Assembly (NCBI GenBank): GCA_047967505.1 | Contig: CM106538.1 | Length of the DNA: 64,000 bases | Strand: one strand, 5' to 3' | Source of the DNA: Dipteris shenzhenensis | Taxonomy: Eukaryota | Shown here: positions 5,386-61,882 of the stretch, one piece after another | Numbering within the stretch: position 1 is the stretch's first letter | Layout: each line of letters begins with the position of its first letter | The notes under the pieces: model-generated | The model's database searches: none | What the model saw: the letters and a program-made list of their open reading frames with translations, nothing else | Told to the model about the DNA's origin: nothing | Translations under genes and position numbers: made by a program

Positions 5386-5810
5386 CAAATCCTAGGACAT
5401 AGCCAAATACATTGCTCTGAAATATGGTAAACAAGACATGCCCTTGTAGTATGGGACGATATTAGAATATAAGAAAAAGATAGAGCAACGGATGGAGGTT
5501 GAGACCTAGAAATTTAATGCCCCTATATCTGCCATCCTTAAGAAAGTGGATGGGGCAACTTTAAAGGCCAATATAGGGAAGCTAGAAAGGGTGCTAGACA
5601 CATACAATGAGAGGCTATCCAAGACCGAATACTTGGTAGGAAATTTATTCAGCTTGGGAGATCTCTCTTATCGGGCTCTCATCTTCCACATATCAGCTCT
5701 CTCATCCTACCAAGATGGGAAATTTGATCACCTCTTGAAAACATGTGAATGCATGGTGAAAGAAAATTCTTCTTAGCCATCTTGGTTGAAGGTGAATCAA
5801 CTACCATCTC
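5386..5810 (+). pseudogene. Phi-class glutathione S-transferase pseudogene fragment (last exon only)
   Basis: Translation across frameshifts and stops gives IAKYIALKYGKQ..YGTILEYKKKIEQRMEVET*KFNAPISAI..KLERVLDTYNERLSKTEYLVGNLFSLGDLS..GNLITS*KHVNAW*..PSWLKV, resembling the GSTF C-terminal domain. No upstream exons recognised. Confidence 0.85.
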
Positions 5811-7116: not shown

Positions 7117-9065
7117 ATTATTTTGGTGATTTGTCCTAGGACACAATGCCATACATCACCTTTTGGGGGCCCTTTCTTTCCTTGGTCATATCTTAGAAGA
7201 CTGCCAAGTTTTCCTCAAAGAATAGTTTTGCTCATAAAGTTGTGCCTGGTAAATGGTCTATCTCTTTGCCAATATATGGCATAGGAGGTAGATTTCAAAT
7301 ATCCAGATCTATCCACTATAGTTGCCCCATTTCCCACCTTGTAGCTAAGGTGATGAGTCATTTCCTTCATTTGACAAAAATAGACCATGGGACTTTATAT
7401 TCCCATTGAATAGGTCAGTGGACTTCATATTCCCATAAAAAATGATAAGGATATTTTCCAATGTTAGCTTGTTAGAAACATAGCCATATTCTTAGAGGCA
7501 TCTCTCAAGAATATACAAAGCCTCACAGATGCTTTGTAGGATTTTTGCCTTGTGGTAGGTGCACTTATCAAAATGGCACAAATCGATATGATTTTGTGTC
7601 AATGATGTGGATGTACTAGGAGGGGTTATTGAGCTTGGATTTAGATGGAATGAAGAGGGGTACCATTGCTAGATATTCAGGATTCAATGTGAACTCCATC
7701 CAATAGTTTGCTTTAGTTTTATAGAACATCAAGAAGAAGCTGCTATATTAGAGTTCCATTATCCTAAAATTGGCCTTTATGGCCCCTCATGGTGAACTAG
7801 CTATAATTAGCATCTACATGGTACATTGCTTCGTATTGGTTCTTCTTATGCTCATGCCAATGGTCAACTCAAGAGATAGATATAGAACTATCTATGGTCC
7901 AAATTTAACAGCACCAATTGACACTAGGGCGAGGGTGGCCGAAAGCATCACCAACCTATCTACACAGAATAGAGGCCTCAACATTATTGATCCTAACATT
8001 ATAGTATAGGGACTTGTTTCTAGGTAAGTTGGTGATTAGAGGACTCCTCGGAAATAAGCCTTGAATGGATTTATTTACTTAATAGATGCAATTCTACACT
8101 CCCCACACAAGTGGTGATTGGCTTTCAAGTACAATATGTGTTTTCACACATGTAGATACTAGTTTCCATGTTCTCCCCTCTTGGCAGTGGTTATCAAAGC
8201 TTGGCATCAAATTTGAGGATTACTTTCATGGATTTCCCCTCATGCTCAAGTTAAGAGGGATAGACAATCAATTATGTGGAACAAGTATGTTTTGAGGATT
8301 TAGAATGGCCACTAGGCTATTCAGACTACATATAGTATTGGGGATGGGATAGGGGACAATGTCGACAATAGATAGCTAGCATTGAGTGGAACATCATCAG
8401 TCAATATGTGTAGGGCACTCATAGATGCACTTTATAGACTGATCCAGTTGTCCTCCTTGGCTGCTTGTAGGGGGAGTGATCAAATGGAGGGTAGGCATGA
8501 TTATCAGTCTGGGCGTACTCTCCTATACAAGTTCCAAATTTACAAGTTCATCATTTTCTCCCACACAAGTGTTCGTTTAGTGATTATTTGTCTTCTTTGG
8601 GACTAGAGAAGAAAAGAAATTATTTATGAGCTGAGGAGGGTTAGAATCAGTAGATTGAAAAAGCAAAACAATTCTTTATGAGCTAAGGAGGGTTAGACTT
8701 AATAGATTGAAAAAGCCGAACTTGACTAGGAAGCCTATTGTCCAAATGATTAGGCTTGTTAGCTTGAGCAATGGAAAATGGTACATAAATCCCACCCTCC
8801 TCTTGTTATGGGATATACTTGGTGCCTTTTTGCATCCACCATAGCTAGTACATTGATCATTGTTGCACTAGGCTTAGCACGATCCACATCTTTCTCACGT
8901 GTTCCCCCTCCCCTCATAAATAGAGGGACTTGATCATTAATCACTCTTCTCTTTACCAATTCCCTTTCCTTTCCCTCCCTCCCCTCCTCATTTTATTTAG
9001 TATATCTTTGAATTCTTGGAGTGACCTATTGGAGAAAACATGTTTTGAAATTGTGTGAAAACATA

Positions 9066-9320
9066 GGGGGATATGAAGTCAATGAAAACAACTACTGGAC
9101 ATTCTATGAGACAATAAAACAATTATTTGACGTCATATGTTCCATTCAAACAACTGTTTGACATTGTATGTTCCATACAATGTCAAATAATTGTTTGCAT
9201 TGTATTCATACCCCCTTATTTTTTCATACAATGTCAAGTAATTATTTTCATTGAACGTGTTTCCTCCATTATGGTTTCATATAATGTCAAATAATTACAT
9301 TCATTGTCTTCATACCCCCC
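9066..9320. mobile_element. MITE-like element with terminal and subterminal inverted repeats
   Basis: Left end GGGGGATATGAAGTCAATGAA and right end TTCATTGTCTTCATACCCCC are near reverse complements. Internal (CAATTA)TTTGACATTGTATG / CATACAATGTCAAATAATTG motifs occur in both orientations. Flanked by TA on both sides. Confidence 0.6.
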
Positions 9321-9489
9321 TAATGGCTCTGACCTAATTCTTCCACTAGTTTCCTCATCTCTATTTTCCATCTACCTATTCTAAATCTTAATCTCAACAA
9401 ATTGTTTGATACATGTAATGTCACATAAGGAGAAAGGTAATTGAAAAGGGATTTATTTTTCAATAGATGAATTCTATTGATTTCTTAGG

Positions 9490-9976: not shown

Positions 9977-11084
9977 TGTGAAAAAAGCATAGTATAGATA
10001 TGATAAGTGGGGGCCCCTCCCTTCATAAATACAGGGACTTCCTCATTAATGATTGTCCCACCTAAATTCTCCATTAGTTTACTCATCCATTCTTTGTGTC
10101 TACTTATTCTAAAAGTCTTTAATCTCAACAAATTATTCCCTACATATAGCTTAACAAAGGAGGACTCTCACTTAATTCCTCCATTAGTTTGGTCATCTAT
10201 ACTTTCCATTTATGTATTCTAAAGGCCCTTAATCTCAACAAATTATTATGTACATATAGATTAACCCAAGGAGAAAGATAATTGAGAAGGCCTTAAATTT
10301 TCAAGGTATAACATTGGAGTATGCAATCTAGCTAAGGCCAAAGGGATAACTAATTTCATACAAAGGGGAGACTTAAACTCAAGACATCCATTACTTACAT
10401 CACAAAGCTACATGAAGATGTTGTGAAAGAAGCAAAGAATACAAGAGCTTTGAATTGTATCATTATAAATAAGAGGGGAGCACAGGGGGAGCACAGGGGA
10501 GGGCCCCTATTTCTCCTCATAAAAAGAGGTATTTTCTTAATAATCACTTTCTCTTTACCCCTCCCCATTGCCTTTTGATCCTTCCACTCCCTTTTCCACT
10601 AATTCATATATTTTTGAATTCTTTTCAATTGGCGTTACCTAAATGGGTCTTAGGTCTTTGAAAGTTTATGAGTCAACCTGTAGAACATAGATTTAAGAAG
10701 GATTTATTCCAATGAAGAGAGAATTATGGAGAAAATTCACTCGCAATAAAAAGACTTATTCAACAGTGTATGAATAAGAGTGGATGAATCAAATTTTAAA
10801 TTAAAAAATCCATGTATTAATGAATGTCATGAGAATATGGAGTGATCAATGTGTATTTGATTTATTTGCTTGGCAAGGAGATACACGTACCTTGGGTTGA
10901 CAACAATGAGACAAACTTGAACAAGATAGTGGCCAAGTAGAATACTAAGAACAAGGATTTGCAAGTAGGGAGAATGTGATTTGGGCAAGTATGGATGATC
11001 TGCAATTGCGGAGAGTGCAATCAAGCATACATACAACATGCGCATTGTGAATTGTCAATGAAACACGATCGACCAAATAAAAAA

Positions 11085-12640
11085 ACAATCACACTAGTTA
11101 GCTAGGTTTGGGGATAGCCTTAGTGGTTACATCATAACTCTTCCCTATACCCACACTAATTAATAGACCAATTACATTAGTCACGTACCATAATCGTTCT
11201 AATTAATAGACATTCTCTCTTTTGCAAAAATAAGTATAAGATTGTCATAGATTGTCCTTCCAAAAACCAAGCAATCATACATTCTTTTGTTTTTTGATGA
11301 GACCATCCCCCAAAGAAATTTGCCACAATTGTATCTTGTTCAACATCGTCATCTATTCAATTGGAGCATCATTAGCTCTCACCAAAAGACTAGTGCAAAA
11401 ATCTGCCAAAGCTGCACCTCCTCCATAATATTCTTCATTTTTGGTTTTGTAGCAGTAAAAGATGAGCATTGGCAATTTGCCACAGATGCTATCGAAAAAA
11501 ATAAATTACATTAGTTAGCTAGGTTTGGGGGATAGCCTAAGTGGTCACATCATAACTCTTCTCTAAACCTACACTAATTAATAGACCAATTACATTAGTC
11601 CCATACCATAATCGTTCTAATTAATAGACATTCACCGTTTTGCAAAAATAAGTAGAAGATTGTCATAGATTGTCCTTCCAAAAGCCAAGCAATCATACAT
11701 TCTTTTTTTTAAAAATGAGACCATCTCCCAAAGAAATTTGCCACAATTGCATCTTGGTCAGCATCTTCATCTGTTCAGTTGGAGCATCATTATCTATCTC
11801 CAAAAGACTAGTGCAAAAATCTGCCAAAGCTGCACCTCCATCATATTCTTCATCTTTGGTTTTGTAGCAGGAAGAGATGAGCATTGGCAGTTTGCCACAG
11901 ATGCTATCATATACTTCATACTTCATAGATGTTCACTTTTTTGAAGCAAAAATTAGAAGATAATCAATTGTATTTGTAGCACCATTATTTATCTCCAAAA
12001 GACTATCTGACAAAGTTACTCCATCTCCATCATTTCTTCATCTTTTGGGTTGTAGCAGGAAGAGAGGAGCATTGGCAATTTTCCACATATGCTGTCTTCT
12101 TCATACTTGATAGACAACCACTATTTTGCAACAAAACTTAGATTATATTTCCAATAACAAAGCACATATTCATTTGTTTCTGGATGAGACCATCTCTGCC
12201 ACCATTGCGTCTTCTTCAGCATCTCCATCTGTTCACTTTGTAGCATCATTATCTATCTCCAAAAGACTAGTGCAGAAATCTGCCACAGTAGCACCTCCTT
12301 TATCATATTCTTCATCTTATGGCATTTAGCAGGAAGAGACGAGCATTGGCAATTTGCCACAGATGCCGTCTTCTTCATCGTATCATCTTTTGATTTTGTA
12401 GTAGCATATATAAATGCAGGAACGTGCGCAAACTCATCCTCTAAAAGCATGACACATAGTTCAGTTTCAATCTCATGATAGTCACTCATAAGGTTGAAAG
12501 CCATAAACTTCATCATGCACAAAAGGGACTAGCTGCTATGGCATCCCCACCGACATCATCAGCTTCCAACGGTGGGTGTAGATCATAGTATAAACATATG
12601 CTCTCACACATACAAATCCACACATCCACACATACTGAGC
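11085..12640 (-). repeat. Degenerate TE-derived repeat block: ~420-bp tandem duplication plus four copies of a ~115-bp subrepeat
   Basis: 11085-11500 and 11505-11910 are near copies. The motif CCAAAAGACTA..GAGCATTGGCA(A/G)TTT(G/T)CCACA recurs at about 11380, 11800, 11995 and 12260. Segment 12415-12640 is homologous to 23085-23290. Confidence 0.8.
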
Positions 12641-12723
12641 AGTGTCTTATCTCCGAGAGACGGAATTAGAGATCTCCCACGCATGTTCATCTTCATCACA
12701 TGAAGCTGGCAGCAGGAGAGCAG

Positions 12724-15384
12724 CTATCTTCCAGAGACGAGTGTAGACATTTGCCAGGAAAGCTGAGACTGTGCTGTATGGGAGAGAGCTACATCTCCTT
12801 CACTCTGTGTCTTTGAAGCATCATCATCATGGTCGTCTTCTGGAAAATATGGTTTTGCTCTGGCAAAGAAGCTACAGGGAGGGGGGGATGCCAATGCTTC
12901 TGTTCCATGAGCTGCTTCCAGCACCTTGACAACCCAGCTCATTGCAGGCCTGGAAGCAGGGTCTTCCTGGAGGCACCACAGAGCCACCTTCACCATCCTC
13001 TGAACTCTTTCCTGCTGCTTCTCCTCCAGGATCTCTCTCTGTAGCCTCGGATCTGCAAGCTCTATCAGATCTTCCCCTTTCTCCAACAATTCAAATGCCC
13101 AGGCAGGAAGATAGCATTCCTTCTGACTCCCATCGAAGCTCCTCCTCCCTCCCACCAGTTCCAGCAGCATTACCCCATAGCTGAACACATCGCTCCTCTC
13201 TGTTATGGCTGCATTCTTGAGCCATTCTGGAGCAAGGTACCCTCGAGTCCCTCGCATTGTCGTCACCGCATAGCTCTCATCTCGCTTCATGGGCTTTGCC
13301 AGACCAAAGTCGGATACTTTGGCATTCCATTGCTTGTCCAGCAATATGTTCTCGGGCTTTATATCGCAGTGGATGATGCGGCTGGTGCACTCTTCGTGAA
13401 GGTAAGCCAGGCCCTGTGCTGTGCCTAACGCGATCGCACAACGCTTTGGCCAATCCAATATGACATCTGCTTCTTTGTTGAAGAGGACCCGATCCAAGGA
13501 TCCGTTCCCCATGAATTCATAGACCAAAAGCCGGTGCGATCCCTCCATACAGTACCCGCAGAGACGCACTAGATTCCTGTGGGAGACGCTGCCTAGAGTG
13601 GCCACCTCTGCGCGGAACTGCTTTGTGCCAGCTGCGCGGTGGATGTCTTTGAGCTCCTTCACGGCAACTCTGATACGATGCGGCTGCGTAAGCACTCCTT
13701 CATACACGGCGCCAAAGCCACCAGCTCCCAATTTGTTTGCAAAACCATCGGTGGCTTCATGCAAATCCTTATAGGAGAATCGGGGGGGTAGCCCGGGCAA
13801 GGTGTCAAGATACATCTCATCCTCTGCAATGGCTTGGCCTCTCCGTTTTCGCCTCCTGACGAAGCATGTTACGAGGCCTATGAGACCAATGAAGGCGGCG
13901 ACGGCACCTATAGTTACTGCAATCGCAAGTGTTTTACGGTGAGAGGAGGAAGCTATGGGAGAAGTAGACGCCCCGCCAGCAGAAGTAGAATTGTATTGTT
14001 GAGGAGAGGGTGCAGGAGCAGGAGCAGGTACAGGAGCTAACGAGCTCGAATCATTACGCAGCTTGATGAAAACCAACTCATTCGGATCATTGGAGAATTG
14101 AAGAGTCCTGATGGGATACTCCATGAGATAGCAGCTTCCGAATGATGATCCCGAATCGTTCTTGAAGAAGACGGATTGACAGGAGCAGTTCTGCAAGCAC
14201 GATAGCTTGCAATCATCCAAGCTGGAATAATTGGACTGGCTTTCTCCATTGTAGAAGTCTTGCGCGGAGAAGTAAGTGTATCCGGTGACATTCAACATCG
14301 TCACGGCAGTGGAATTCGCGCCCCGAGTGCATTGATTCTGCAAGGGTAGAGCAGGGGATGTGCAACCCTGTGTTGGATCCGAAGCATTTGCGAGGCGGAA
14401 ACCACGAAGGCATACGCTGCTGCAAGAAGATGAGGAGGAGCTGCAAACTCCGTATTGGCCGCAGGCATCCGGATGCTGGCACGCCGTCGTGAGAGCTCGA
14501 TAGTTGAGCTGCCAGATCCCTTCCTTGAACACGAAATCGCGCAAGTTCCCGTCCGATTCCAATCTTACATACTCGAAGAATTCGGAATTCGGATTGAGGT
14601 TATTGCTGGACGTGCTCACGATGCTCTCCGAGGAGCTGTCGTAGACGGTGAGGCCGTTGCTCACGGCGACGTAAGAACCCAAGCAGCACACCCAGGCGTT
14701 TTGGGGGAGGCTGAACGTTGCTTCCATGCTCCAGTAGATTTCTGGACCGGATGGTTGATCGAAGGAAGCGTACAGAAGCAAATCGTTGGAGTAATTGGAA
14801 ACTGCCATGGAGTAGATGCCTCCCGATTTGTAGGGAGCATCGGCAGCTGCAGCGAACATCGTCACATGCAGATTCAATCGCTGGCCAATGATCAGAGTGT
14901 CTGATGGTTGATCGAAGCTCTGCCATACCGTCTCCTTGCTCACATTCGAGTTTCTTCCCTTGACGAGCATCAGATTGCCGTTCCGCAGCAGCTGCATGGA
15001 TTTCACACCGCTTGCCGCTGTGCCACTGTTCCATGCCAAGCTTCCATTGTCCCTCAGCTGCAGATCTCCATCCTTCTGCAGGGCGAGGCTGCAGTTTGGA
15101 GAGCTGTTGCTGCTGGTAGCGTTGTAGAAATTGGCCACCCAGACTTGCAGGGAGGAGGGGACGTGATGCACTGCAAGAATACAAGGCGCATTGGGAGAAG
15201 CTCGGCCTAAGATAAGCGAGAAATTGCCATTAGTAAGGACGGTGAGGTTGTCTTGCAGCGCTTCATTTTGCCAGTGTGTGCCTAAGGCTGCGGTGGAGTT
15301 GACGAGTGCGCGAGCAGGGATGGATCGATGCAAGGAGAGAAGCAGAAAAACGAAGGCAAAAGCAAGAAATGGATACCGATCCAT
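12724..15384 (-). CDS. G-type lectin S-receptor-like Ser/Thr kinase (SD2/SD2-5-like), 886 aa, uninterrupted ORF
   Basis: Signal peptide (MDRYPFLAFAFVFLLLSL), B-lectin motifs (LQKDGDLQL, LLRNGNLML, WQSFDQPSDTL), RLESDGNL, EGF-like CQHPDACGQYGVC, PAN CKLSCLQNCSC, TM helix followed by RRRKRR, LPGLPPRFSYKDL juxtamembrane, and complete kinase motifs GAGGFG/VAVK/HCDIKPEN/DFG/GTRGYLAPE. Confidence 0.96.
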   Translation of the reverse strand: MDRYPFLAFAFVFLLLSLHRSIPARALVNSTAALGTHWQNEALQDNLTVLTNGNFSLILGRASPNAPCILAVHHVPSSLQVWVANFYNATSSNSSPNCSLALQKDGDLQLRDNGSLAWNSGTAASGVKSMQLLRNGNLMLVKGRNSNVSKETVWQSFDQPSDTLIIGQRLNLHVTMFAAAADAPYKSGGIYSMAVSNYSNDLLLYASFDQPSGPEIYWSMEATFSLPQNAWVCCLGSYVAVSNGLTVYDSSSESIVSTSSNNLNPNSEFFEYVRLESDGNLRDFVFKEGIWQLNYRALTTACQHPDACGQYGVCSSSSSSCSSVCLRGFRLANASDPTQGCTSPALPLQNQCTRGANSTAVTMLNVTGYTYFSAQDFYNGESQSNYSSLDDCKLSCLQNCSCQSVFFKNDSGSSFGSCYLMEYPIRTLQFSNDPNELVFIKLRNDSSSLAPVPAPAPAPSPQQYNSTSAGGASTSPIASSSHRKTLAIAVTIGAVAAFIGLIGLVTCFVRRRKRRGQAIAEDEMYLDTLPGLPPRFSYKDLHEATDGFANKLGAGGFGAVYEGVLTQPHRIRVAVKELKDIHRAAGTKQFRAEVATLGSVSHRNLVRLCGYCMEGSHRLLVYEFMGNGSLDRVLFNKEADVILDWPKRCAIALGTAQGLAYLHEECTSRIIHCDIKPENILLDKQWNAKVSDFGLAKPMKRDESYAVTTMRGTRGYLAPEWLKNAAITERSDVFSYGVMLLELVGGRRSFDGSQKECYLPAWAFELLEKGEDLIELADPRLQREILEEKQQERVQRMVKVALWCLQEDPASRPAMSWVVKVLEAAHGTEALASPPPCSFFARAKPYFPEDDHDDDASKTQSEGDVALSHTAQSQLSWQMSTLVSGR

Positions 15385-15691
15385 GGCGAGAAGCTTGATG
15401 GTGCGGATACAGGAGAGCTCAAATCCTCAAGAGGATCCAAAAGTAGTGATCTCTGCATGAACGAAAGCTCAATCTTGCTATTGCTTTTCAACGCAGAATG
15501 GCGCGAACCACGCTCAATCATCACTGTAGTGTCTATGATTTGACAATGTCAACGCCACCCATCGATCCAAAAACGCGTCTTCAAGCTCAGCACAACACGT
15601 CTTTCATGCCCCCGCAACTTTCCCATTTCTCACATACCTGCTTTGAACCTCTGCATTAACAAACATTGCAATCTCCTCCACTCCCCCTCAG
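15385..15691. promoter_or_regulatory. Candidate shared divergent promoter / 5' UTR region of the two RLKs
   Basis: Immediately upstream of the minus-strand RLK ATG. Contains the palindrome TTGACAATGTCAA (15540-15552), ACGCGT (15573-15578) and ACACGT (15595-15600), and ends at a plus-strand donor-like CAG|GTACCC (15691/15692). Confidence 0.4.
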
Positions 15692-16479
15692 GTACCCCCC
15701 GCATCATATGCTTTCTCGCTTTTTTGGTTCACTTTGTTTTCTCGCGGGATTGTATAGATTGGCTGCAAGAACATAGAATCTCTCTAGCTTGCCTAATTGC
15801 ATGCGTTACTACTTTTTCTATTCAACATTGCATCGATCAGCAAGCCGTAGATGGCTTCATTCAGGATGAGTCGTTAGTAATCACTTACCGATACCATACA
15901 TGCCGTATACTCAGCCGCCTGATTATTCCTCTGTTAATACCCCCCCCCCCCCCTGGCTGGCTGTTTGCATTTACAAGGCTTCTACCAGCAGCTCCGACTT
16001 GATTGTTGTTGCCAATCCATTGTAGGTGGCATCAGTCCACTGATGAGGGCAAGGTGGCAAGCCTAAGAAGGCGTTCCCACTCCTCGCCCATCCAAGTAGA
16101 AATGCCTCAAAATACAACCGCTGGTATAGTTCCCACTCAACTTCCCGACATTTTCGGAGCCAAAACCACGCGTTGCCATGCCCTGTTGGAGACACAAAAA
16201 AGCTCTTGCTCGCCGGTCATTTTGGGGCTTCCTGACAACAAAGTTTGTTGTTTCTGCGGTTTCAACATTTGCAGGTCTATCTTTAGGTGCTGTGTGGGCG
16301 CGGACTGAGAACAGGCTATAAGAGGCCGACCAGCTTTTGAAGCCATGAGCATTTAATGGTGGCCATAGCTACAGAAACCTGCATCCCCGCACTCCTTTGT
16401 CAGGCCATCCTGCTCTTCGTCCTTGCATCTATGCTTACATGAACCACCTTGCATCTATGCTTACATGGACCACTGCACT

Positions 16480-16790
16480 TCACTTCCCTTCAAGGCATAG
16501 CACTGGTGGGCTGCATTGTTGGCCTCATGCCCACGCGAAGCTAGGTTCATGATTGGATACATGCGAGTTTGGCTTTCGAGGGTGACTACATCCAGGAGGT
16601 CACCATCTATGGGAAAGGCATTTTTCTTATTCAGTTGAGTGTCTGATGCCACCTAGCTCCTTGTGGAGTAAAGTCCAATTTTCCTCGGCCCGCATCTAGT
16701 GTTCTTCATATTGTGGTACCATGGTTTCACAATTGATGATATGGATTTGATGCACCATGTGCCGCATTTCCTAGTGATGCTTCAGTTCCC
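16480..16790 (+). mobile_element. LINE (L1-type) ORF1 DUF4283-like fragment between the two RLKs
   Basis: Translates as VHDWIHASLAFEGDYIQEVTI..GKGIFLIQLS..SPIFLGPHLVFFILWYHGFTIDDMDLMHHVPHFLVMLQFP, which aligns by eye with ORF1 of the LINE at 29272-29973 (EDGHIEEVALMGRGIFWLKLS..PWYRGFS..IPHHPVTLVFP). Confidence 0.75.
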
Positions 16791-17554
16791 ACCTAGCAGG
16801 ACATCACCCTCATTGTCAATCTCTTTTATATTGGAACGTGGGTCCACTCCTCCCCCTTCACCGCTGTTTTTTCCATATATTACCATACACAAAATAGGAT
16901 ATCTGAAGAATGCCTTTCATATACAATAGGCTGTTCTAAACTGTTATAACATGCCAATTAATCAATATGAGAACCAGTGTTTATACTATAATAGCACATG
17001 AGTTGGTGCTCATGGACAGATGCCTGTAATGAGCTTCCTTATTGCCAGTAATGTACTTGCTAGAAAGCCTTTTCCAAAATCCAACTGGATTTAGAGACAA
17101 ATCTTTGAGCACCTTGGTCATCAGGAGAAACTTTAAAAATGGACGCCAGCATATTTCCCAGATTTTTTTTTTGGTGAGATTGCGATGTAACACTGTCTAC
17201 GATGACAAATGTTATTTGATGAATCATGTATGTGTATGGAATGATTCATATGGACGATCATTTGGAGGGCATGCACCTTGAATTTGAGATACACAAGGCT
17301 GCTTGAATTGAATATGATAGCAAGAGTATGGAGATAATAAAATGGCATAAGTTCATGTTCCTGCTGGAATCTTAAAAGAATAGTTCCTGAAATTGAGCCA
17401 TGCAAGGGGTTACACCCAAAACAGTTTGAAGCAGTCTTAAAAGAAGATAATCTAGAGAATATCATTAGTAACTTTTTGACGAAATTTTTCTTTATTTCAG
17501 ATCTTGTGGACTTGGGCTCTGCAAATGTTTTAAACCTTCTTGGAGCTGGTGGAT

Positions 17555-20029
17555 ATGGTCATCAAAGCTCCTGCTTCATTAGTCATCCTCCCCTGTTTTG
17601 TCTGCAAATGGACTGTGGACCAATGGCATCGTCACATCCTATACGTGTTGCTTCTGAGCATCGTCATTCAATATAGTGATTGTAAATCAATTATGGGACT
17701 GGGAACAAGCACCAGTGCCAATTATTTTATGGGATCCCAAGCTGTGGTGGTGCTTGAATCAGGATCAGGTGGATATGCTATGTTATTGGACTGTGGGAAT
17801 GCAACTATAGTAGTAAAGAATATAATGGCTGAATTAGATAGCCCAGTGCTAGTGTGGGTGGCCAATTATTTTGACAGTAATTACACTGTTATGGGTTCAG
17901 AGAATGTTACTTGTTCTTTGGAACTTCGACGAGATGGAGATCTGCAACTTTTACTCAATACAACAGAGCAGAACAGTCAAGTTCTTGTATGGAGTACTGG
18001 CACAAAAGGGAAAGGCGTACAAAGCTTGGAGATCCAGGATTCAGGAAATTTGGTTTTAGTTGATTCCAGAAATGGTACTGTGTGGCAGAGCTTTGACTAT
18101 CCAACCAATGTGCTGCTAGAGGGCCAGAACTTGACAAAAGGAATGAAGCTCGTGGCTCCAGATGCCACAGGATATCATTCAGGAGGTGCTTATTTAATGG
18201 AACTGGAAGATGGAGACCTATGTCTGTATGCAGTTATAGGTAATGATGGAAACAGAGCCCTCTACTGGAGCCTTAACAAAAGTATTGGGAGCCAGGTTCA
18301 CTCAGACCTCAGCCAAGTTGAATATGCAGCACTTTTCCAAGGAGGCATTGGCCTGTTTGCAGCAGATTCTTCTGTTGTGGCCTTCACGTCAAGTCAATCA
18401 TCTCAAAGCTCTTATTCCACCTTATTCGGTCGCTTGAATGCGGATGCCAGTTTCGTTGTTTATCTGTTAGTCGAAGGTGAAGCGTGGTCCACAAATTATG
18501 CAGCTCTTGACACAAATTGCCAAAATCCCAAGGCATGTGGCAATTATGGCCTTTGTGCCATCAACAGCTCACAGAACACCGTAAATTGCACTTGCCCAGC
18601 TCGTTTTAATCCTTTAAACTCATCTGACCTCACTCAAGGCTGCACACCCCTACAAGTTCCTCATTGTGGAGGTGATGTGGAGCTTTTGCAACTCGATGGA
18701 AATGGATACTCTTACTTCTCCAGTTATGTCTCATCCTCTGTTAATATGCCCTTGGATCAATGTAAACAAAGTTGTCTACAAAACTGTTCATGCCTTGCTG
18801 TGTTCATCAATCTGGAGACTCCAAGTGCATGCTTTTCCATTCAGAATGATATACTGACAATCATGGCAACTTCTGACGCGAACCAGCTCATGTTTCTGAA
18901 AGTTGATGCCAACTCTATCGGCCAAAGCACTACAGCAAGTGCACCCACAAGCCATAAGAAAGGAGTGTTGACAATAGCGGTAGGGCTAGGCTCTGCAGGT
19001 GCAGTTTTGTTCCTCAGTATCATGGTGGTTTTAATAATGATATGGGGAAGAAAAAAGGCTCAACATAAGAAAGGAGAAACCTTTCTGAACAAGTTGCCAG
19101 GTCTACCTCCCAGATTTTCATACAAGGATTTGCAGATTGCGACAAATGGTTTCAGTCAGCAGGTTGGTAGAGGAGGATTTGGTTGCGTCTATGAAGGTGT
19201 CCTTGGTAGTAAGTCTAGAATAGCTGTGAAGCGTTTAGAAGGTGGAACACAGGGAGAGAAACAATTTGAGGCAGAAGTTGCTTCTATTGGAAGCATTGAC
19301 CATATGAACTTGGTGCGCCTCCGAGGATTTTGCATGGAGGGTGAACATCGGTTATTGGTATATGAATTCATGGAAGGAGGCTCTCTGGATATGTATATTT
19401 GTAGAGACAGGGTGACTCCATCTTTACCCATACTAGATTGGCAAGCGCGCTATAAAATTGCACTGGAAGTAGCAAGGGGCTTGGCATACCTCCATGAGGG
19501 AACTTCCAGGAAAATCATTCACTGTGACATCAAGCCTGCAAACATTCTTCTAGACTCGAGCTTGGTTGCCAAAATTTCAGACTTAGGCCTCTGTAAAATA
19601 ATGCACAGGGACATGCAAAGTTACACAATGACTAACATGAGAGGTACAAGGGGCTACCTTGCTCCCGAATGGCTTTTGAACTTGCCCATAACCGAGAAAA
19701 GTGATGTATACAGTTATGGGATGGTGCTGCTGGAGCTAGTAAGTGGCAGGAAAATTTTGGACCTCAATGCGGGCGATGAAAGCTTTGTTGATCTGCCAAG
19801 CCAGGCATCCAGTGCAGTTATAAATAACTGTATTGTAGATTTCTTGGATGGTAGACTCGCTGCAGTCACCCCTGGGCAGGAGGTATACAGGCTTGTTCAA
19901 GTATCTTTGTGTTGCACTCAAGAGGTTGCTGCATTAAGGCCTAAGATGAGCACTGTAGTGAAGATGCTAGAAGGTACCATTGAGGTCCTCCCCGAACTTT
20001 CACCTAGTGCTATAACCCTGGTGCATTGA
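17555..20029 (+). CDS. G-type lectin S-receptor-like Ser/Thr kinase (SD2-like), about 824 aa, uninterrupted ORF
   Basis: The ORF track starts at a TTG (17540); the first in-frame ATG is 17555. Hydrophobic signal ILYVLLLSIVIQYSDC, LRRDGDLQL, WQSFDYPTNVLL, EGF CQNPKACGNYGLC, PAN CKQSCLQNCSC, TM, LPGLPPRFSYKDL, and kinase GRGGFG/IAVK/HCDIKPAN/DLG/GTRGYLAPE. Confidence 0.95.
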   Translation: MVIKAPASLVILPCFVCKWTVDQWHRHILYVLLLSIVIQYSDCKSIMGLGTSTSANYFMGSQAVVVLESGSGGYAMLLDCGNATIVVKNIMAELDSPVLVWVANYFDSNYTVMGSENVTCSLELRRDGDLQLLLNTTEQNSQVLVWSTGTKGKGVQSLEIQDSGNLVLVDSRNGTVWQSFDYPTNVLLEGQNLTKGMKLVAPDATGYHSGGAYLMELEDGDLCLYAVIGNDGNRALYWSLNKSIGSQVHSDLSQVEYAALFQGGIGLFAADSSVVAFTSSQSSQSSYSTLFGRLNADASFVVYLLVEGEAWSTNYAALDTNCQNPKACGNYGLCAINSSQNTVNCTCPARFNPLNSSDLTQGCTPLQVPHCGGDVELLQLDGNGYSYFSSYVSSSVNMPLDQCKQSCLQNCSCLAVFINLETPSACFSIQNDILTIMATSDANQLMFLKVDANSIGQSTTASAPTSHKKGVLTIAVGLGSAGAVLFLSIMVVLIMIWGRKKAQHKKGETFLNKLPGLPPRFSYKDLQIATNGFSQQVGRGGFGCVYEGVLGSKSRIAVKRLEGGTQGEKQFEAEVASIGSIDHMNLVRLRGFCMEGEHRLLVYEFMEGGSLDMYICRDRVTPSLPILDWQARYKIALEVARGLAYLHEGTSRKIIHCDIKPANILLDSSLVAKISDLGLCKIMHRDMQSYTMTNMRGTRGYLAPEWLLNLPITEKSDVYSYGMVLLELVSGRKILDLNAGDESFVDLPSQASSAVINNCIVDFLDGRLAAVTPGQEVYRLVQVSLCCTQEVAALRPKMSTVVKMLEGTIEVLPELSPSAITLVH

Positions 20030-20533
20030 GTTTGATCTTTGTATGATTGATTTTTGAAGAGAGGAATACGAGGAGGTAATGAGTTAATTGTGGGAAATGC
20101 CTCCAAAGGACTACTTAAACAAGTTGTTAACTATTAATGACAAAAAGTAGCTAAATTTGTCATAGTTGAAGCCAGCAAATAAGCTAACCCTCTCATTTGA
20201 ACATTGATACTGCCTCACTTTCACGCTTCCCCTCTTTCCCTTCTTCACTCCTCTATCCATGCTTTCTTCTTAGCACTTTTTCACCAAAAGTGGATGACTT
20301 CCTGCACCTGTACACCATGTGCAGATGATGAAAGCTTTCCAAGTGCTACCTTAAATGCAACTAATTTTCTCTTGACCTGTGTGACCAAGGAGAAAGTTAC
20401 CTAAGGTAACAGTAGTTAGGATTACTATGCCGAGAAGTGTTGGGTTTTGAGGGCTAATTTCCTTTCTTAGTATGTTTTGATTCAATTCTTGATCTACATG
20501 CACTCTCCTCCCACAACGGTGCTCTCTCTCCCT

Positions 20534-21399: not shown

Positions 21400-23521
21400 T
21401 AAATCTATGACTTGTTGGAGGAAGCTAGAATGCAAGAGAGCAAGAAAGAAAAGGAGTATACTTGCAAATGGATGATGAGAAAGTAGAATAGTGGCCAATA
21501 TATGGCCCAACCAACTTAGGACTAAATGTCCAAACGGTACCAATCCTAGATGCCCTAGGTGGACCAAGTGTCCTAACTAGCCTACAAGGCCATACCAGGG
21601 CTAAAGTGGCAGCAAACATCCTTGCATAGTATGGCATACCATCCTCTGAGGAGAAACAGAAGCCAGGCTCCAATGGTATGGAAAACGGCTTACAATCCTC
21701 GAACTGAAAGTGATGTAAGAGCTGTCCAATGTACTTAGACTGGCTCATCATTATGCTTCCCTCAAAGTGAGCAAATTGGTTGTCAAGATAGTAATGCAAC
21801 TGGCCAATATCTGACATTGCAAAAGATTTTTGCAAATCAGCCTTGAAGGCTGCAATTTGTTGAGTATTTGGCCCAGTGATAAGCATGCCATCCACATAAA
21901 GAATCAATATGAGCAAATCTGCTCCACTCTTTTGGAGATAGAGTTACTTCTATGGGGCTGTTCTAAAAACCAAGGCATATCAAATGTATATGAATTTCGG
22001 CATACCATGCATGGAGTGCTTGCTTCAGCGCATAAAGGGCCTTGTGTAGCCGGCATACCTTATTTTCAAACCCTCTCAACCTCAAAATCAGGAGGTTTCC
22101 TGACATAGATTTGGTCAAGAGAATCACCGTGCTGAAAAGCAATCTTAATGTCAAGTTGATAAGACTCGCAAAGCTTGTGTGATGAAATAGCAATGACACA
22201 TTGAATGTTGATGTGGGAGCAAAGGTTTTATCAAAGTCAATGCCTTACCACTGAACATAGCCCCTAGCAACAAGACGAGATTGGTATTGGTCCACGCTGC
22301 CATCAGCTTTCTGCTTCAACTTGTAAACCCACTTAGTGCCGATGGCACGCTTGCCAGGAGGCAAGTCATGCAACTCCCATGTGCCAATTTGATGAATGGA
22401 ATCCAATTCAGCTTTCATAGCATCTATCCACTCTTTGTTGTCAAAAGCATCCTTATGGCATAAAGTTCCTCATTGCAGGCTATGGCAATCAAAGCAACAT
22501 CCAAAAAATTGTCATGCATGTCTCTGTGCACCTCCAGTGCAGGACCAAGGGTTCAGCTTGCTTGCTGTCCCTAAGAGTATCCAAAAGTCACCTGGGGACT
22601 GTTTTTTGCTGTTTAATGACAGCTCTCCTCTGCAAGTGCTTGTTTAATAGCATGATCACCACGCTGAGGCAAATCAGGCTGAACATGGGCATCATGAGGA
22701 GGCTGAGAATGCTAGAAGCTGAGGGATTTGAACCCTGCAAGTTTGATCTGAATTTATATTTGATTGAAAGAGGGGCAGCAATGAATCAAACACATCTGAG
22801 GCATTTACAGAAGGCTGTTTTTGACGGTCCAGCTAAGGCAGAGCTACTTCCTCAGCAAAAACAACATCTTTGCTGACACTAATTCCTCGTGCCAGGTTGA
22901 TACAATATTTAGCCTTTACTTTATAAGATAGCCTATGAATATACATTTCACTGCTTCATCCTCCAATTTGTGCCTCAACTAAGAGGGAACGTGTGCATAT
23001 GCTGACACCCAGATACCCGCATGTGTGAAATTACAAGCCTCCGGCCTATCCATGCTTCATAGGTAGTGTATACCTAGATGAGTCCAGGAACATGCCCAAA
23101 CTCACCCTCTAAAAACACAACATAGTGCATTTTTAATCTTATGATAGTCACTCATAAGGTTGAAAACAATAAACTCCATCATGCATACAATAGTGGGCAT
23201 AGACCATAGTATAAACATATGCTCACACATACAAATCCACACACCCACACATACTTGGAACATCCATTTATACAAAGTCTTCATACTGAGTTTTTGTCAG
23301 CACTTCGGAGGTAAAGGGCAGACTCAGCCATGACGAAGGCTAGCACTAAAGGAGAAGGCTAATCAAAAGGTAGTCCAAAATCTCTTCCTTCAAGCTACAA
23401 CTACTTGTGAAGACTAAAACGATTTCATTTTAGTCTCTCCCAGACGAGCATCTAAATCTAGTTGATCGCCTTGAATGCCTGTGTGGGTGATGCATTCAGT
23501 ACATAGTTGGCATACGGGATT
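21400..23521 (-). mobile_element. Copia element A, 3' part (end of integrase plus degenerate RT)
   Basis: RT motifs VCRLHKALYALKQA, ILYVDGMLITG, MSQSKYI, DCKPFSIPLEPG; 23460-23520 reads IPYANYVLNASPTQAFKAI (integrase C-terminal part). Confidence 0.85.
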
Positions 23522-23651
23522 TTTTTTGCCAAAAAAATAGTGCTAATTATATTACTTCGAAAACAAGATACAAGAGGTCAGCATTGCAGCTGACGGGCTG
23601 CATTCACAAATTGGACGCAGCCCAAAAAGGTAACAAAAGTAAAGCTCTCTC

Positions 23652-26600
23652 TCACGGAGGGATAAGGCGAGTGTGAATGAACAGCCAGAGAGGTGGTGAG
23701 TAGCGCCACTGAAGGCCCTGCGAAGCCTGCTCGAAGAAGAGGCCCTGTGTGTCCCAAACCCGGAGGAAACGTCTCCGCTTCTCCCGACCGGCCCGGGAGT
23801 CCCCCTGTATCTGGTCCCACTGGCCTCTGAGGGTGTGTATAATCTCACTCCAGATGTCAGTCATGATCTGGGCAGTCGATAAGGAGGTGCCACCGAGGAT
23901 CTGCGCGCAGCGTGAGGTCCAAATGTGCCATCCTGCGATGCTGCTAATAATCTCCCAGACTGGCTGCCTCTCCTGAGCTCCTGTGCCAGCCTCTGCCAGG
24001 TGCTGCGGGATACTCTCGAGCGGCCCCCACGTCCCCTGTGTGATAAGGAATGTGGGGTCCTGCTGACATGCCTCGAATAAGTGATGAAAACCAGGTGCGG
24101 TGCTGCACTAGCAGAACGCGCCCCAAGTGATCAATCCTAGCTCCGGTGTTGCGCGAGTAAGGATCCCGAAAGTCCACCTCCACACTTCCTGGGCGTGAGT
24201 GCAACTCCATAGGCAGTGTTTTGGTGACTCCTCGTCCTCATGACAGATCTGACAACGTTCGTCCTGGCCTATTTGCCGCAACCAGCTCCCCACTGGAAGA
24301 CCTTTGTGGGCAAGAAGCCACAGGAAGTAGGAGATCTTCCGCGGCCGCCAGCTCTCCCACAAGGCCTGCAAAAAGAACCTGGAAATACCCTGTGCATACC
24401 AACTGGGCCGTTGGGTGGGAGGGCGGCTCTGCATCCTCCCGAGAACTCGCCTGCCCAATGTCGTGCTGTAGGCAAAGAAAGAGGTCGGCCCCTGACCTGG
24501 TCACAATCTCTGGCCATCTCCACTCTCTTGGGTCCCAATCAAGCTCTGACAAGGCCCGCCCCTCCCAGAGCTAGAGTCGCCAAAGCTGCAGCTGATCCTG
24601 CTCTATGCTAGGATTGGTCCGCCAAACCTTCCCCACGAAGCCTACAATCCAAACCCTCTGCCATGGGAGTAGGGGGTTGATGAGCACATCCTCTCTCCTG
24701 AGTCGTCCATCCCCCATAACCGCGAAGAAGGAAACAGAGGAGTCGTCCATCCGCCCTACGACCACCAGTGGGATGCCACGGGGGGTGAACTGTCCCAGCC
24801 AATGGTCATCACCAGGCATGAGGATCTGAAGCTCAGGTGGAACCAACCAATCAGCTGGAATCACGCCGTCAATCTCCGTACGTCTCGCCTGGGCTCCACG
24901 GGCACCTCCAGCTACGTTTGCAAGATCAGCCGTCTCCAAATGTCTGTACGTGTCCCTCCAAACTCGAAGGGACCGGGCTGGCCCCCGCATCCAGCCGTCC
25001 CACCTGATGTGTGATCTCTCCCCCAACAGAAGGCCCTCGGCATCTCTGACCTGATCGTTCCAGATAAGTGGCTGGCGATCGATCTCCTCCTGACAGCTAG
25101 GAGGGGACTGAATGAGACTGAGGCGGAGCCGCCTCCAAACCATGAGGAGGCTACGAACGAGTGGGGAGCGGGGCTGAGTGAGCGGGGCAGAAGTGAAGAT
25201 CCACCTGAGGGACAGTAGCCACTCTCCACCTCGGCGCGGGACACAAGAACCGACCCCCTGCTGAAGTAACATCTTCCACGTTTGCCCCCCCGGGGTCAAA
25301 CCGCGGACAACTAGCTTGCCTAACAGGGCCTGACTCTGAAGCTCTGGATCGATGACCCCCCAGGCCACCCTCAGCCTGCGGAAGAATGACTGTCTGCCAA
25401 GCAACCCTGGCTCTGGTATCTCTGAGGCCATCCTCCTCGGACCATAGGAAGTTCCGAACCAACCTCCTAAGCTGTGCCACGCTGGATCTCGAGAAACACC
25501 AATAGGAAGCCACATACCAAGCCGTGGCTAGGAGGACCTGGTTGACTACCAGGGCACGACCTACAAGGGAGAGCTTAGCAGTGCTCCAGAAAGCCAGCTT
25601 CCGTCGGATGGAATCTAGCACCGGGAGAAACTACTGAGCTGGCGTGATATCCAGGCCGACCTGAAAACCGAGATATCTAGCTGTCTGTCCCCGCGGGATC
25701 CACCTGAAACCCAAAAACCTCCTCCACTGAGAGCACGCCCCGGGGTCTGTGAGAAAACCAACTGATTTGTTCCAGTTGATTTTCGCACCGGTAGTCGAAC
25801 AGAAGACCTCTAGGGCCATCCTCACCCTCTCCAACATCATCTCATCATCCTGTACATATAGTGCTGTGTCATCCGCGTACTCCGAGTCCAGGAGCTCCGT
25901 GTCCTCCCGGAGTGGAAGGCGAACACCCCTGATCCCAGTAGACCTCGCCCGAAGGTAGTATGTCATAGCCTCAGCAAAGAAGAGAAACAAGTAAGGAGCA
26001 AGGGGGCAGCCCTGACGCACTGATCTCTCCAGACGAAAACGCTCACCCATCCTACCGCCAATGATGACCCTGCTAGAAGCTGTCCTGTACTACGCTGAAA
26101 TACCCTGAATCCATCCTGCTGGGAAACCTAGTCGCTCCAGAGTCCCCTCCAGAAAGGACCAGTCCACTCGATCGTAGGCCTTCTCAAAGTCGAGAAGTAG
26201 GATGGCTAGGTGTGACCCACTGTGCTGAGCCCACTCCGCCGCCTCTGAGAAGGTGAAGACATTATCCAGGATACTGCGATCCTAGACAAAGCCTATGTGA
26301 GTGTCATGAATGAGGTCTGGAAGTAGAGGCCGAACTCTGGCGCTGATCATCTTGGCAAGGATTTTGTAGGCAGTGGTAAGGAGGGTGATCGGGCGCCACT
26401 GACGGATCTCCTGTCTATCTCCTCGCTTCGGGATGAGGCAAATCAGTCCCGAGGAGAGGCTCTCTGGCATATAACTGCTGCTGAAAATCCTCTGAAGAGC
26501 TGCTAGGAGGGGCTGATGGATCTGATCCCAGAAGGAGGTGAAGAATGCCCGGGATAGCCCATCCTCGCCCGGGCATTTCTGCCCGTCGATGGCCATCAAG

Positions 26601-28030
26601 GCCTCCAACATCTCGTCCGTAGTGAACGGTGCCAACGTCGCCTGCATGCTGGGCTGGACCAGGGATGGAATGTGCCTCCACACCTCCTCACGGGAGCGTC
26701 GAGTGCGAGGGGCAAGCGGCTCCTACTGGAAAAGAGTCCTGTAGAAGTCGGTAGCCAACCCCAAGACCTCACCCGGATCCGTAACAATGTGCCCCCCCGC
26801 TGTCTTGAGACTCCGAAGCTGATCACTTGTGCTGCTCTCTGACCATGCGTCCTGAAGAACTCCCTGCACATCCGGTCACCCTTCCGAGCCCAGAAGGAGA
26901 GAGAGGCATGATAGGAAAACTCTGAACGGCGCTGGAGGGTCTCCTCAAGAAGGGCTCTGGCTCGAAGGGCCTGAATCCGAAGCTCCTCCGAGCCCGGGGC
27001 TGCCTGCTGGAGTCGCTGAATGGAGGCGAGGTCCCTCCGAAGAGCTCTCTCTCTGCCCCACCACTCCTGTCGAACCTGTAGGACTGCGAGTTGGCAAATC
27101 TGGCTGGACTCCTGCAAAGCCTGCGCCACCGAATCAACCAGATCCACGCACTCGCCCCAATCTCTGTCCCATAGATTGCATATACTGTTGCGCACGTCCT
27201 TCCTCGAGAAAATGGAGTCGGGAATCTGGCATGAACGGGGGGGAAGGGCTTGAACTGCTGAGTCTAATGATAAGAGCACAGGCGCATGGTCGGAAAGTGT
27301 CGTCCCTGGAACTATACCCACCTGACTGCCTTTGTTGATGGCCCAATCACTGACATAAAATCTATCCAGCCTCTCCAGGAGTCTGCCTCCTTCCCTGCGG
27401 AAGTCCCACGAGAAGTCCAAGCTCCCGTGCCAACGACGGAAGGACGGGTCTCTCCAACTGTCCCTACCTCCTGTCGTGAAGATAAATGAGTCCCAAGCGG
27501 ACTGCTCTGCCTGAGACATACCTGTAAACTCCGGTCCTCTGCCCTACTGGTCCTCCAAGGTCTCCAGATTGTTGAAGTCACCTCCAACAATCCAGGAATC
27601 CGTCTGGGAGAATCCCTGTAAGTGTCCTCCAGAAGGTGGCTCTGCAATGGAGGTCTGTGGGAGCATAAATGTTGAGGATTCCTATTCTGGAACCCTCCAG
27701 TTCCAGGCCTACCCAAAGGGCACGGCCTGGGATCAACGTGCCATGACCGAAAACTCCCTGGGCTAGCTGCTCGCACACGGAAGTACAAACACCTCCACTC
27801 CTCCCTTGTGCGCCGATCGAGGGCTCCCAATAAGTGTGAGAACGTCTAGGGAGAATCTTCCCGCAGCTACGGGAGTGAGCCGCAGAAAGCTTGTGCTCCT
27901 GGAGCAGAAGTACATCCAAACGACCAATCACTGCTGGCTGAAGTTCCTGTCTCAAAATGAGCTTCCTAGGACCACGGGTGCCAGAAGAATGAAACCCGTT
28001 CACATTCCAGAATACAAGGTGTAGGCTCAT
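23652..28030 (-). pseudogene. LINE ORF2 (APE endonuclease, reverse transcriptase, zf-RVT), several stops and frameshifts
   Basis: WNVNG..LQEHK..NIYAP..RLDRFYVS..SDHAPV (APE); KCPGEDG, WRPITLL..YKILAK, LDFEKAYDRVDW, VRQGCPLAPYLF, YADD, YLG (RT); CQICHEDEESPKHCLWSC (zf-RVT). Confidence 0.95.
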
Positions 28031-30100: not shown

Positions 30101-30184
30101 GCGAGGCTTCCGATGAAGACGAGGCTGCCACCCAGAAAAGGGGGGATAGATGCGGGAGGGTGGAGCCTGGGTGTGAAGAAGACG

Positions 30185-30813
30185 GGTGAGGAACGGGGGC
30201 GGGAGGCCGGGAGGCGGAGGTGGCGCGGGGTGGGGGGGTGAGGACGGAGAGCGGGTGAGGTGAGGAGGTGGGAGTGGGGGAGGGGCGGGGCGGGGCGGGA
30301 GGGCGGGAGGGGGCGGGGTGGAAGGGCGGGGCGGAAGGGGCGGGGCGGAGCGGAAGGGCGGGAGGGGCGGGGCGGAAGGGTGGGGTGGAGGGGGCGGGGG
30401 CGGAGCGGAAGGGCGGGAGGGGCGGGGGCGGTGTAGCGAGGGGAGGGGGGTGAAGCGGGGGAGGAGCGGAGTGAGACGGCGGGGCGGTGAAGTGAGGGGG
30501 CGGGGGGTGAGGCGGAACGGCGAGGGGGGGGGTGAGGCGTAGCGAGGGGGGGTAGCGTGAGACGGGGTGAGGCGGAGGGGCGAGGGGGTGAGGGAGCGGA
30601 GAGGCGAGGGGTGAGGCGGAGAGGTGAGGGGTGAGAGCGGAGGGGGGCGAGGGGGTGAGAGCAGAGGGCGAGGGGGCGCGGCGGCAGCGGCGAGGTGAGG
30701 CGGCGGGTGAGGGGGGGGGTGAGGGCGGAGAGGCAGGGGGGTGGGGGTGGTCGAGGCGGGGAGGAGCTAGGGGAGGTAGAGGTTGCAGGAGGGGAGGGGA
30801 GGCTCGCAGGAGC
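30185..30813 (-). repeat. Extremely G-skewed low-complexity 5' UTR of the LINE (GGGGC / GGGGTGAG arrays)
   Basis: About 630 bp dominated by G runs on the plus strand, CpG-rich. Confidence 0.9.
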
Positions 30814-30842: not shown

Positions 30843-31560
30843 GTTGGCATACGGGATTGCATCCAACCAAAACTTGTTGGACAAAGAGTTACCCTTAAGC
30901 ATACACGTGGCCGTTTCCATAAAAGTTCGATTCTTCTGCTTTGCAACTCCATTTTTGGTGTGGAGTGTATGGCACTGTGCACTGATGTATAATGCCCTGG
31001 GCTGCTAAAAAATCAAAAAATTCATAGGACATGTACTTACCCCATGTGTCAGTGTGGAGGGTTAGGAGCTCATTTCCACTATCATTTTCAGAAGAAAGAG
31101 TAGCCCCTAAGAGATGCTGTCCAAATCAGTCTGCATAAATCTCTATGTACTAAGTGCAACTTCCTAGATGCACCAACAGTCCCATCCTTGGGAAAGGAAA
31201 ACTGATGTATTTTGCCCAACAAGCAGCCCTCATAGACCCCAACAAGCAGCAACTGATGTATTTTGCCCAACAAGCAGCCCTCATAGACCCCAACAAGCAG
31301 CCCTCACAAACATGTTTGGAAAGCACATGCATTCACGGAAGGTCTACCATCATGTCGTCAGCATTTTGACTAGACTACCATAGTTGAGGTTTCCCAATCT
31401 CTCATGCCATAGATGTGTATCAACAATTACAGATTCAGCTGATGCATTTGCTTCTATAAAAGCCCCTTTGTCATAAGCATTGAGATGTACAGACCTCAGG
31501 AAAGTGTTTGAATAAGTATTATGTTGCTTTATCATGCCGGTAGACATACATGGCACAATG
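30843..31560 (-). mobile_element. Copia element A, 5' part (GAG-pre-integrase and partial integrase)
   Basis: LWHERLGNLNYGSL, VCEGCLLGKIHQFSFPK..KLHLVHRDLC, METATCMLKGNSLSNKFWLDAIPYAN, which continues on the far side of the LINE. Contains a 51-bp tandem duplication at 31200-31301. Confidence 0.88.
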
Positions 31561-31679
31561 ATAACCATTAAAAATGACCTTGAAAGCCATTTGTAGAGAT
31601 GGTTGATATAAAATCAGATAACATACAAAACTTTAAGACCGTGACTGTAACTCTCGAGATATAAGTGACTTCCACGTGA

Positions 31680-34390: not shown

Positions 34391-34599
34391 GGGTTGACCC
34401 AATCGCCGGCTTATATCACATTGCTGAGCAAACTTTATGGCATCTTATTCGCCACCGGAGTCCACATGCAGGACCTTTCTGCCAGAGTGATGTTGTCGAG
34501 AAAGTGTCCACTAGAGATTCCTTGCTGTGCTTCACGCAAGATGGCCTCTGTTTCATGTAGTAGGTGCACAACACCGAAGAATTGTATCAAATGCTGATG

Positions 34600-61877: not shown

Positions 61878-61882
61878 GAGGA

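Follow-up and report, generated by a model that had tools for sequence, protein, structure and literature searches.

The 64-kb window analyzed here (64,000 nt of Dipteris shenzhenensis contig CM106538.1, assembly GCA_047967505.1) contains two complete S-domain (G-type lectin) receptor kinase genes, A and B, which lie side by side in divergent orientation. Gene A (12724-15384, minus strand; ATG at 15384, stop at 12724) is one open frame without an intron for 886 amino acids (aa), and its product comprises a putative signal peptide, B-lectin and SLG domains, EGF-like and PAN-type cysteine clusters, a Pro/Ser stalk, a transmembrane (TM) segment and a kinase. Gene B (17555-20029, plus strand; ATG at 17555, stop at 20029), likewise uninterrupted, encodes 824 aa with a long atypical leader followed by B-lectin, SLG, EGF-like and PAN modules, a TM segment and a kinase. 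The two ATGs are 2,170 nt apart, which agrees with the first-pass annotation of two intact divergent receptor-like kinases (RLKs) with start codons about 2.17 kb apart; the transcript starts, however, are much closer, as described below. In the Pfam search, B_lectin (PF01453) and S_locus_glycop (PF00954) exceeded the cut-off in both proteins, both of which also have a kinase domain, while NB-ARC and LRR domains were absent from both. PAN_2 was matched in B but not in A; the EGF-like and PAN cysteine pattern occupies residues 302-418 of A, with a matching set in B, and the alignment of A with SRK8 spans this region. SRK8 (6kyw, E 1.5e-7) was the only solved receptor matched. One strong TM segment, the HCD catalytic loop and LPGLPPRFSYKDL are common to A and B. 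Their overall identity is 41%, with 33% in the ectodomains, whose strong divergence had been noted from the letters alone, and 54% in the kinases. The N-terminus of A has a hydrophobic peak at residues 6-24. The leader of B, approximately 43 aa long, falls below the hydropathy threshold, with a helix predicted at 21-41 in an AlphaFold model whose mean predicted local distance difference test (pLDDT) score was 68 and below 50 in the activation loop, a model from which kinase activity is not judgeable. A complex prediction of the two ectodomains, folded without alignments or controls, gave a score of 0.00 and counts neither for nor against binding. The neighbors also differ in composition: the GC content at third codon positions is 0.58 in A and 0.41 in B, the observed/expected CpG ratios are 0.71 and 0.30, respectively, and B appears methylation-eroded like the background DNA, while the 5′ half of A is CpG-rich.

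The kinase of A carries HCD, DFG, VTTMRGT and APE motifs; that of B carries K559, E574, HCD, DLG, MTNMRGT and APE and ends 19 aa past subdomain XI. The HCD loop in both proteins and the DFG/DLG difference had thus been read correctly at first pass. Both kinases retain all core catalytic residues, and K559, D658 and D676 of B are invariant in all eight aligned rows. By its core residues, with the catalytic Lys, HxD Asp and DxG Asp all kept, B does not qualify as a pseudokinase co-receptor or decoy. The best named matches were the SD2-5, At5g35370, At1g34300, At2g19130 and SD2-2 types. Among the top 65 matches to B (with A's own orthologue excluded), 62 had HCD or another non-RD loop, 2 were HRD and 1 was not read, while 51 of the next 54 by E-value rank were HRD. 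A and B are SD-2-type G-lectin kinases by sequence, grouping with non-RD SD2-named proteins away from the HRD SD-1 types. Within this grouping they belong to a separate 11-row clade (support 94/96), all named members of which are from seed-free plants, apart from the SD2-5 clade; a quick tree of the kinase domains alone is partly circular for the subfamily grouping, its rows having been chosen by non-RD status. The non-RD trait, initially taken as a mark of something special about the pair, is uninformative in this respect because it is general across the subfamily. Moreover, the juxtamembrane motif LPPRF occurs in 26 of 122 collected non-RD lectin kinases, a set rich in near-copies of the A/B clade; neither HCD nor this motif is pair-specific.

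Transcription of the locus was followed by comparing it with contigs from four public runs of four coded organisms (X1-X4). Such contigs show presence and splicing rather than level, strand or exact start, and their RNA origin, which the run records do not state, is deduced from a spliced joint. This joint, recovered in two of the four runs (with a short side of 66 nt in X1 and 75 nt in X2), reveals a 1,809-nt GT..AG intron in the 5′ untranslated region (UTR) of B. The plus-strand leader of B accordingly consists of a non-coding exon 1 with a minimum extent of 15613-15691, the intron at 15692-17500 (joint 15687-17497, cut +4; donor and acceptor are visible in the sequence) and the remaining 5′ UTR at 17501-17554. 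On the minus strand, the 5′ UTR of A covers at least 15385-15478, as given by an X2 piece at 15237-15478, with X1 extending to 15440. An upstream ATG is present in both 5′ UTRs: that of B opens a minimal upstream open reading frame (ORF; 17525-17533), and that of A an out-of-frame ORF of 58 aa (15282-15458, minus strand) which overlaps the A start. The gap between the transcript 5′ ends is at most 134 nt in X2, where A reaches 15478 and B exon 1 begins at 15613, and at most 181 nt in X1. Because B has this 5′-UTR intron, the transcripts start no more than 134 nt apart and not 2.17 kb, with the shared core promoter region at 15479-15612. Contigs of near full length were obtained for A and B in both X1 (12597-15440 and 17497-20063) and X3 (12807-15389 and 17734-20034), and X2 and X4 contained pieces of each gene. 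Both genes were thus seen in all four runs: they are transcribed in the same samples and neither is silent; silence of one gene had been named in advance as an outcome that would speak against a functional pair. X1 differs from the window at 31 of 2,853 nt in A and 17 of 2,567 nt in B. The stretches 16779-17352 and 20223-20480 were without contig coverage, which was not counted as absence. Low-depth X1 contigs also matched pieces of the B intron (16096-16769), and these may be unspliced RNA, intron retention or DNA.

The core promoter region includes a 13-nt palindrome (15540-15552), a candidate cis-element which recurs in five out of five closely related Sphagnum loci, where it lies approximately 850 nt upstream of the A orthologue. 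The palindrome was chosen post hoc, and some 13-mer was shared by chance in 16 of 1000 shuffles and 16 of 417 real tiles; as a cis-element it is a weak lead only. A CGCG-box-like hexamer at 15573-15578 may be a CAMTA site.

The two lineages are old. In the main tree (30 rows, 755 columns), gene A, P0001, P0241 and two Sphagnum rows formed one clade (100/100), gene B, P0285 and two Sphagnum rows formed another (100/96), and the two clades were sisters (94/92); the grouping of each gene with its own Sphagnum orthologue had a bootstrap value of 100. The kinase-only tree agrees (Shimodaira-Hasegawa support 87 and 95). After its close orthologue P0001, the A ectodomain had its best matches in Sphagnum proteins, and the best match of B was a different Sphagnum protein. 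A groups with an Adiantum fragment against the mosses (89/90), this fragment being 55% identical to A and 39% to the Sphagnum protein; going by this one gene, the host plant is probably a fern. An ordinary recent inverted tandem duplication would account for paralogous neighbors whose clades are sisters; for each gene, however, the moss orthologue and not the neighbor is the nearer relative, the approximately unbiased (AU) test rejected gene A, P0001 and gene B as one clade (p-AU 4.5e-7), and the orthologues are adjacent in four Sphagnum species, which leaves this explanation practically without a chance. A and B are old, separately maintained lineages which duplicated before mosses and vascular plants parted, a split that is more than 400 million years old. 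The initial view that the pair is something other than an ordinary tandem duplicate is borne out by the tree, by the AU test and by the recurrence of linkage and divergent orientation in Sphagnum. The sole Adiantum A-type match (P0246, L7F22_051201) has 166 aa and no kinase, and may mark a decayed or mis-annotated locus. A profile search with alignment A3 returned 27 matches, none of them a new member of either lineage.

The linkage itself is not species-specific. Orthologues of A and B have adjacent identifiers in S. magellanicum (CY35_17G002100/17G002000), in two assemblies of S. jensenii (CAK9264610/609 and CAN5961976/975), in S. tenellum (CAM6063072/073) and in S. compactum (CAM6038948/949), which establishes adjacency rather than orientation. 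Orientation was taken from metagenome contigs. Six loci were returned, five of them of the Sphagnum type; the sixth (L006) proved to be a spurious match of bacterial type and was set aside. The orthologues are head-to-head on two of the five Sphagnum contigs, L001 and L002. On L001, the B orthologue occupies 545 to ~3450 on the minus strand, with the start of the A orthologue at 8321 on the plus strand. Since L001 and L002 are 99.6% identical, they make up one independent observation of the moss orientation. A-type P0241 and B-type P0285 each come from a contig 9,476 bp long, and it is probable that they share a single contig. No synteny was found beyond the pair: when six-frame fragments of L001, L003 and L005 were compared with the window, nothing outside the pair was matched. 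The Sphagnum loci have some features of their own: a clathrin-light-chain-like gene, absent from the 64-kb window, follows the A orthologue (L001 16534-18560), and the orthologues have introns in the lectin region (L001 ~2600-2650 and 8717-9480) where the window coding sequences are uninterrupted. Two Sphagnum proteins, P0400 and P0429, are kinase-less lectin-SLG-PAN relatives, one A-like and one B-like, and by analogy with SLG beside SRK it is possible that they act as soluble decoys.

A second trait conserved along with the linkage is the asymmetry of the two kinases. The C-terminal tail of A (12724-12918, minus strand) runs 64 aa past subdomain XI, and tails of 59-65 aa are also found in P0001, P0241, P0242 and P0390. 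The A types combine a TTM activation loop with such tails, apart from three longer Sphagnum gene models; in one of these (P0135), the extra length is a fused clathrin light chain. The B types, on the other hand, end 1-19 aa past subdomain XI, and the residue that precedes (M/V)RGT in their activation loop is Asn; both traits hold in all seven rows, which amount to three independent lineages because five of them are near-identical Sphagnum copies. These states are rare. Across the 122 collected non-RD lectin kinases, the same loop position is Asn in 8 and Thr in 85, and DLG (as in B here) occurs in 2; tails of 25 aa or less were found in 13 of 94 non-RD rows (median tail 54). In addition, ARE replaces APE in all five Sphagnum B rows. 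The ectodomains have been conserved in different places, too: in comparison with moss, A is best kept at residues 241-280 (65%) and on to 320 (57%), which is where B is least kept (32% and 25% over the same 241-320 region), and in A-versus-B comparisons the identity at 241-280 is 15-20%.

The changes in B might be taken to mean that it acts as a brake, a tail-less and weakly active kinase which would hold the co-expressed A quiet in a role resembling that of the BIR proteins. The missing tail, the lost activation-loop Thr, the DLG of the present gene and the ARE of the Sphagnum rows fit such a role; the kept catalytic Lys, alpha-C Glu, HCD Asp and DxG Asp do not. Moreover, B is well conserved in organism C, with 162 differences in approximately 2,300 nt in comparison with 327 in 2,586 nt for A, and this higher conservation of B also disfavors a relaxed or decaying gene. 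Overall, we regard the brake as improbable.

The explanation that we favor, and hold to be slightly on the probable side, is an ancient, co-regulated module of two receptors which act in one pathway. As tree and synteny show, one SD-2-type G-lectin receptor kinase underwent an inverted duplication before the moss/vascular-plant split, giving rise to two lineages that stayed back to back. In the present plant, transcripts of both genes run outward from a common stretch no longer than 134 nt, which the 1.8-kb 5′-UTR intron conceals. One set of cis-elements should therefore switch on both. The proteins would then have divided their roles. A is likely the ligand-binding and signal-output receptor in view of its conserved ligand-facing lectin region, two activation-loop Thr and C-terminal tail, and B is likely a partner which tunes or completes the activation, since it is tail-less, has Asn for the second Thr and tolerates the change of DFG to DLG or of APE to ARE. 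Most likely, the two would act together in a single pathway that responds to a conserved cue, for example a lipid or glycan of microbial origin or a signal from the wall, with a ligand that is probably conserved rather than polymorphic. A physical A-B heteromer can be put forward tentatively, as somewhat less likely than its absence, and for an immune or microbe-sensing role the chances appear even.

Several observations weigh against the favored module. The contigs speak for the presence of both transcripts and not for their co-regulation. B is the more conserved gene in organism C, and its intact core residues are not those of a pseudokinase. Three of the five Sphagnum contigs have no B upstream of A: L003 and L005 have other sequence there for 6.3 and 8.3 kb, respectively, until the contig stops, while L004 continues for only 2.7 kb, which is too short. 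The Sphagnum start codons are approximately 4.9 kb apart. The position of B in a short ectodomain tree is unresolved. Finally, in searches that were word-limited or run on 50% representatives, neither gene had an orthologue recovered from lycophytes, liverworts, Physcomitrium, Ceratopteris or seed plants, and Adiantum yielded just the kinase-less A fragment.

A rival explanation is a linkage that is real and old but purely regulatory: the promoters would have come to overlap after the inverted duplication, so that moving them apart would damage both genes, and each protein would act on a ligand of its own, independently of the other. A common core no longer than 134 nt would suffice to explain why the neighbors were retained, and the ectodomains are just 33% identical. 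The characterized G-lectin receptors SRK and LORE are homo-oligomers (PMC13006823), and a 313-bp bidirectional promoter is described as joining the kinase gene SZE1 to an unrelated mitochondrial gene (PMC13360266). Against a merely regulatory bond, the moss genes stay neighbors despite start codons about 5 kb apart and a variable spacer, and the rare kinase and tail changes of the B types look like dependence on a partner. We consider it a serious contender, if rather an unlikely one.

The pair lies within retroelement-rich DNA. The Pfam scan covered 174 of the 241 stop-to-stop frames of at least 70 aa in the window; the other 67 comprised the frames of the two genes, further ones overlapping A, B or a long interspersed nuclear element (LINE), and Pro/Gly-rich repeat frames. 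No other intact gene was found in the scanned frames, which gave retroelement domains and one GST_C fragment, although a gene built solely from short exons could escape such a scan; with this proviso, the initial statement that A and B are the only intact genes in 64 kb can be upheld. Low gene density is usual in the large genomes of seed-free plants. The GST_C fragment (5510-5773, plus strand), the sole non-retroelement Pfam match outside the pair, lies among stop codons and is a pseudogene piece. Next to the 3′ end of A, the region 11079-12460 contains a degenerate tandem array of three to four copies (90% identity for one unit of 416 nt) with broken minus-strand frames that contain Asp/Glu and Cys; it has contig coverage in X1 and X4 and no Pfam match, and could represent either a decayed gene or an extended 3′ UTR of A. 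An SCR-like ligand encoded there was considered and dropped, as every minus-strand frame of the copies is interrupted by stops and Pfam gave no match. A short high-copy repeat at 12420-12640, in the 3′ region of A, with a second copy near 23085-23255, reached contig depths of hundreds to thousands in all four runs and resembles a short interspersed nuclear element (SINE) or a miniature inverted-repeat transposable element (MITE). Farther away, a broken LINE (~23650-30000, minus strand) with endonuclease, reverse transcriptase (RT) and zf-RVT pieces is followed by a G-rich repeat at 30170-30780 which recurs at ~54100-54700. Broken copia-type (RVT_2, integrase, gag), RT_RNaseH and DUF4283 pieces are scattered over 21428-22469, 31353-34410, 39853-40594, 45310-45636 and 49213-49485, and the regions 53410-54061 and 56694-61878 hold an array with a 183-nt period, also self-complementary, and a 2.41-kb unit present three times.

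Retroelement-rich surroundings, a domain order like that of SRK and SRK8 as the only solved receptor match would suit a locus of the S-locus type, self/non-self recognition having been among the possibilities named at first pass. This reading is not supported. The second lectin/SLG region of A is its best-conserved ectodomain stretch in comparison with moss (the 65% at 241-280 given above), the opposite of the hypervariable SRK pocket as portrayed in PMC13006823. X1 and the window differ at few positions, both kinases are non-RD, unlike the SD-1 type of the lower-ranked HRD matches, and no secreted Cys-rich gene was recognized nearby, where a small one could escape. An S-locus-like function is accordingly very improbable.

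Among known systems, SRK, LORE and RDA2 are RD kinases, and the SD-1-like matches obtained here were HRD. These SD-1-type G-lectin receptors are related to A through its ectodomain homology to SRK8; SRK and LORE, however, act as homo-oligomers, with a hypervariable pocket in SRK, where the corresponding region of A is conserved to moss (PMC13006823). The SD-2 G-type lectin RLKs (SD2-5/At4g32300, At5g35370, At1g34300 and rice Pi-d2) are closer, having the same domain order and non-RD loop as A and B; for these SD-2 genes, unlike A and B, no conserved head-to-head partner was found described in the literature searched. PMC5889549 names Pi-d2 as the homologue of SD2-5 in rice, bioRxiv 2020.01.23.916528 gives it as non-RD, and S-domain RLKs as a whole are stated to be land-plant specific in PMC10868138. 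On the A/B pair itself no paper was found in the literature searched, and gene-family or synteny tables in supplements could list these genes.

S-domain kinases form a fast-turnover family, and gene order is rarely kept from moss to fern. That the linkage has been kept so long suggests strong selection on the pair, and it suggests a receptor partnership older than the moss/vascular-plant split. The cereal Lrk/Tak duplex is reported likewise to consist of two non-RD RLK genes held close together in opposite orientation across grasses, with an ectodomain class different from that of A and B and a distribution limited to grasses. If that is right, paired RLK genes are not new as such; the age and the S-domain class of the present pair would be.

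G-lectin receptors bind microbial lipids, and whether those acting in immunity need a co-receptor is named as open in a 2026 review (PMC13006823). The present locus opens this question to direct tests, since a specific receptor and a specific partner can be named as candidates together with their Sphagnum gene models. In addition, a stretch no longer than 134 nt here serves two receptor genes as their natural promoter, a type of element of which few examples have been characterized (PMC13360266). The same source describes the head-to-head nucleotide-binding leucine-rich repeat receptor (NLR) pairs, such as RRS1/RPS4, which have the divergent orientation, the short shared promoter and the two unequal partners in common with A and B. 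Unlike RRS1/RPS4, A and B are cell-surface kinases without NB-ARC, and their asymmetry is one of sequence; because NB-ARC is absent, the pair is not a member of the NLR pairs and at most works alike. NLR pairs are usually lineage-restricted, whereas the A/B pair spans moss and fern-side plants. In the boldest form of the two-receptor module, which we think doubtful, A and B would be an obligate heteromeric G-lectin receptor for a conserved microbial or wall-derived ligand, a receptor and co-receptor hard-wired in the genome, arranged head-to-head ever since mosses and vascular plants shared an ancestor and apparently lost in seed plants; if true, it would be the cell-surface counterpart of the paired NLRs.

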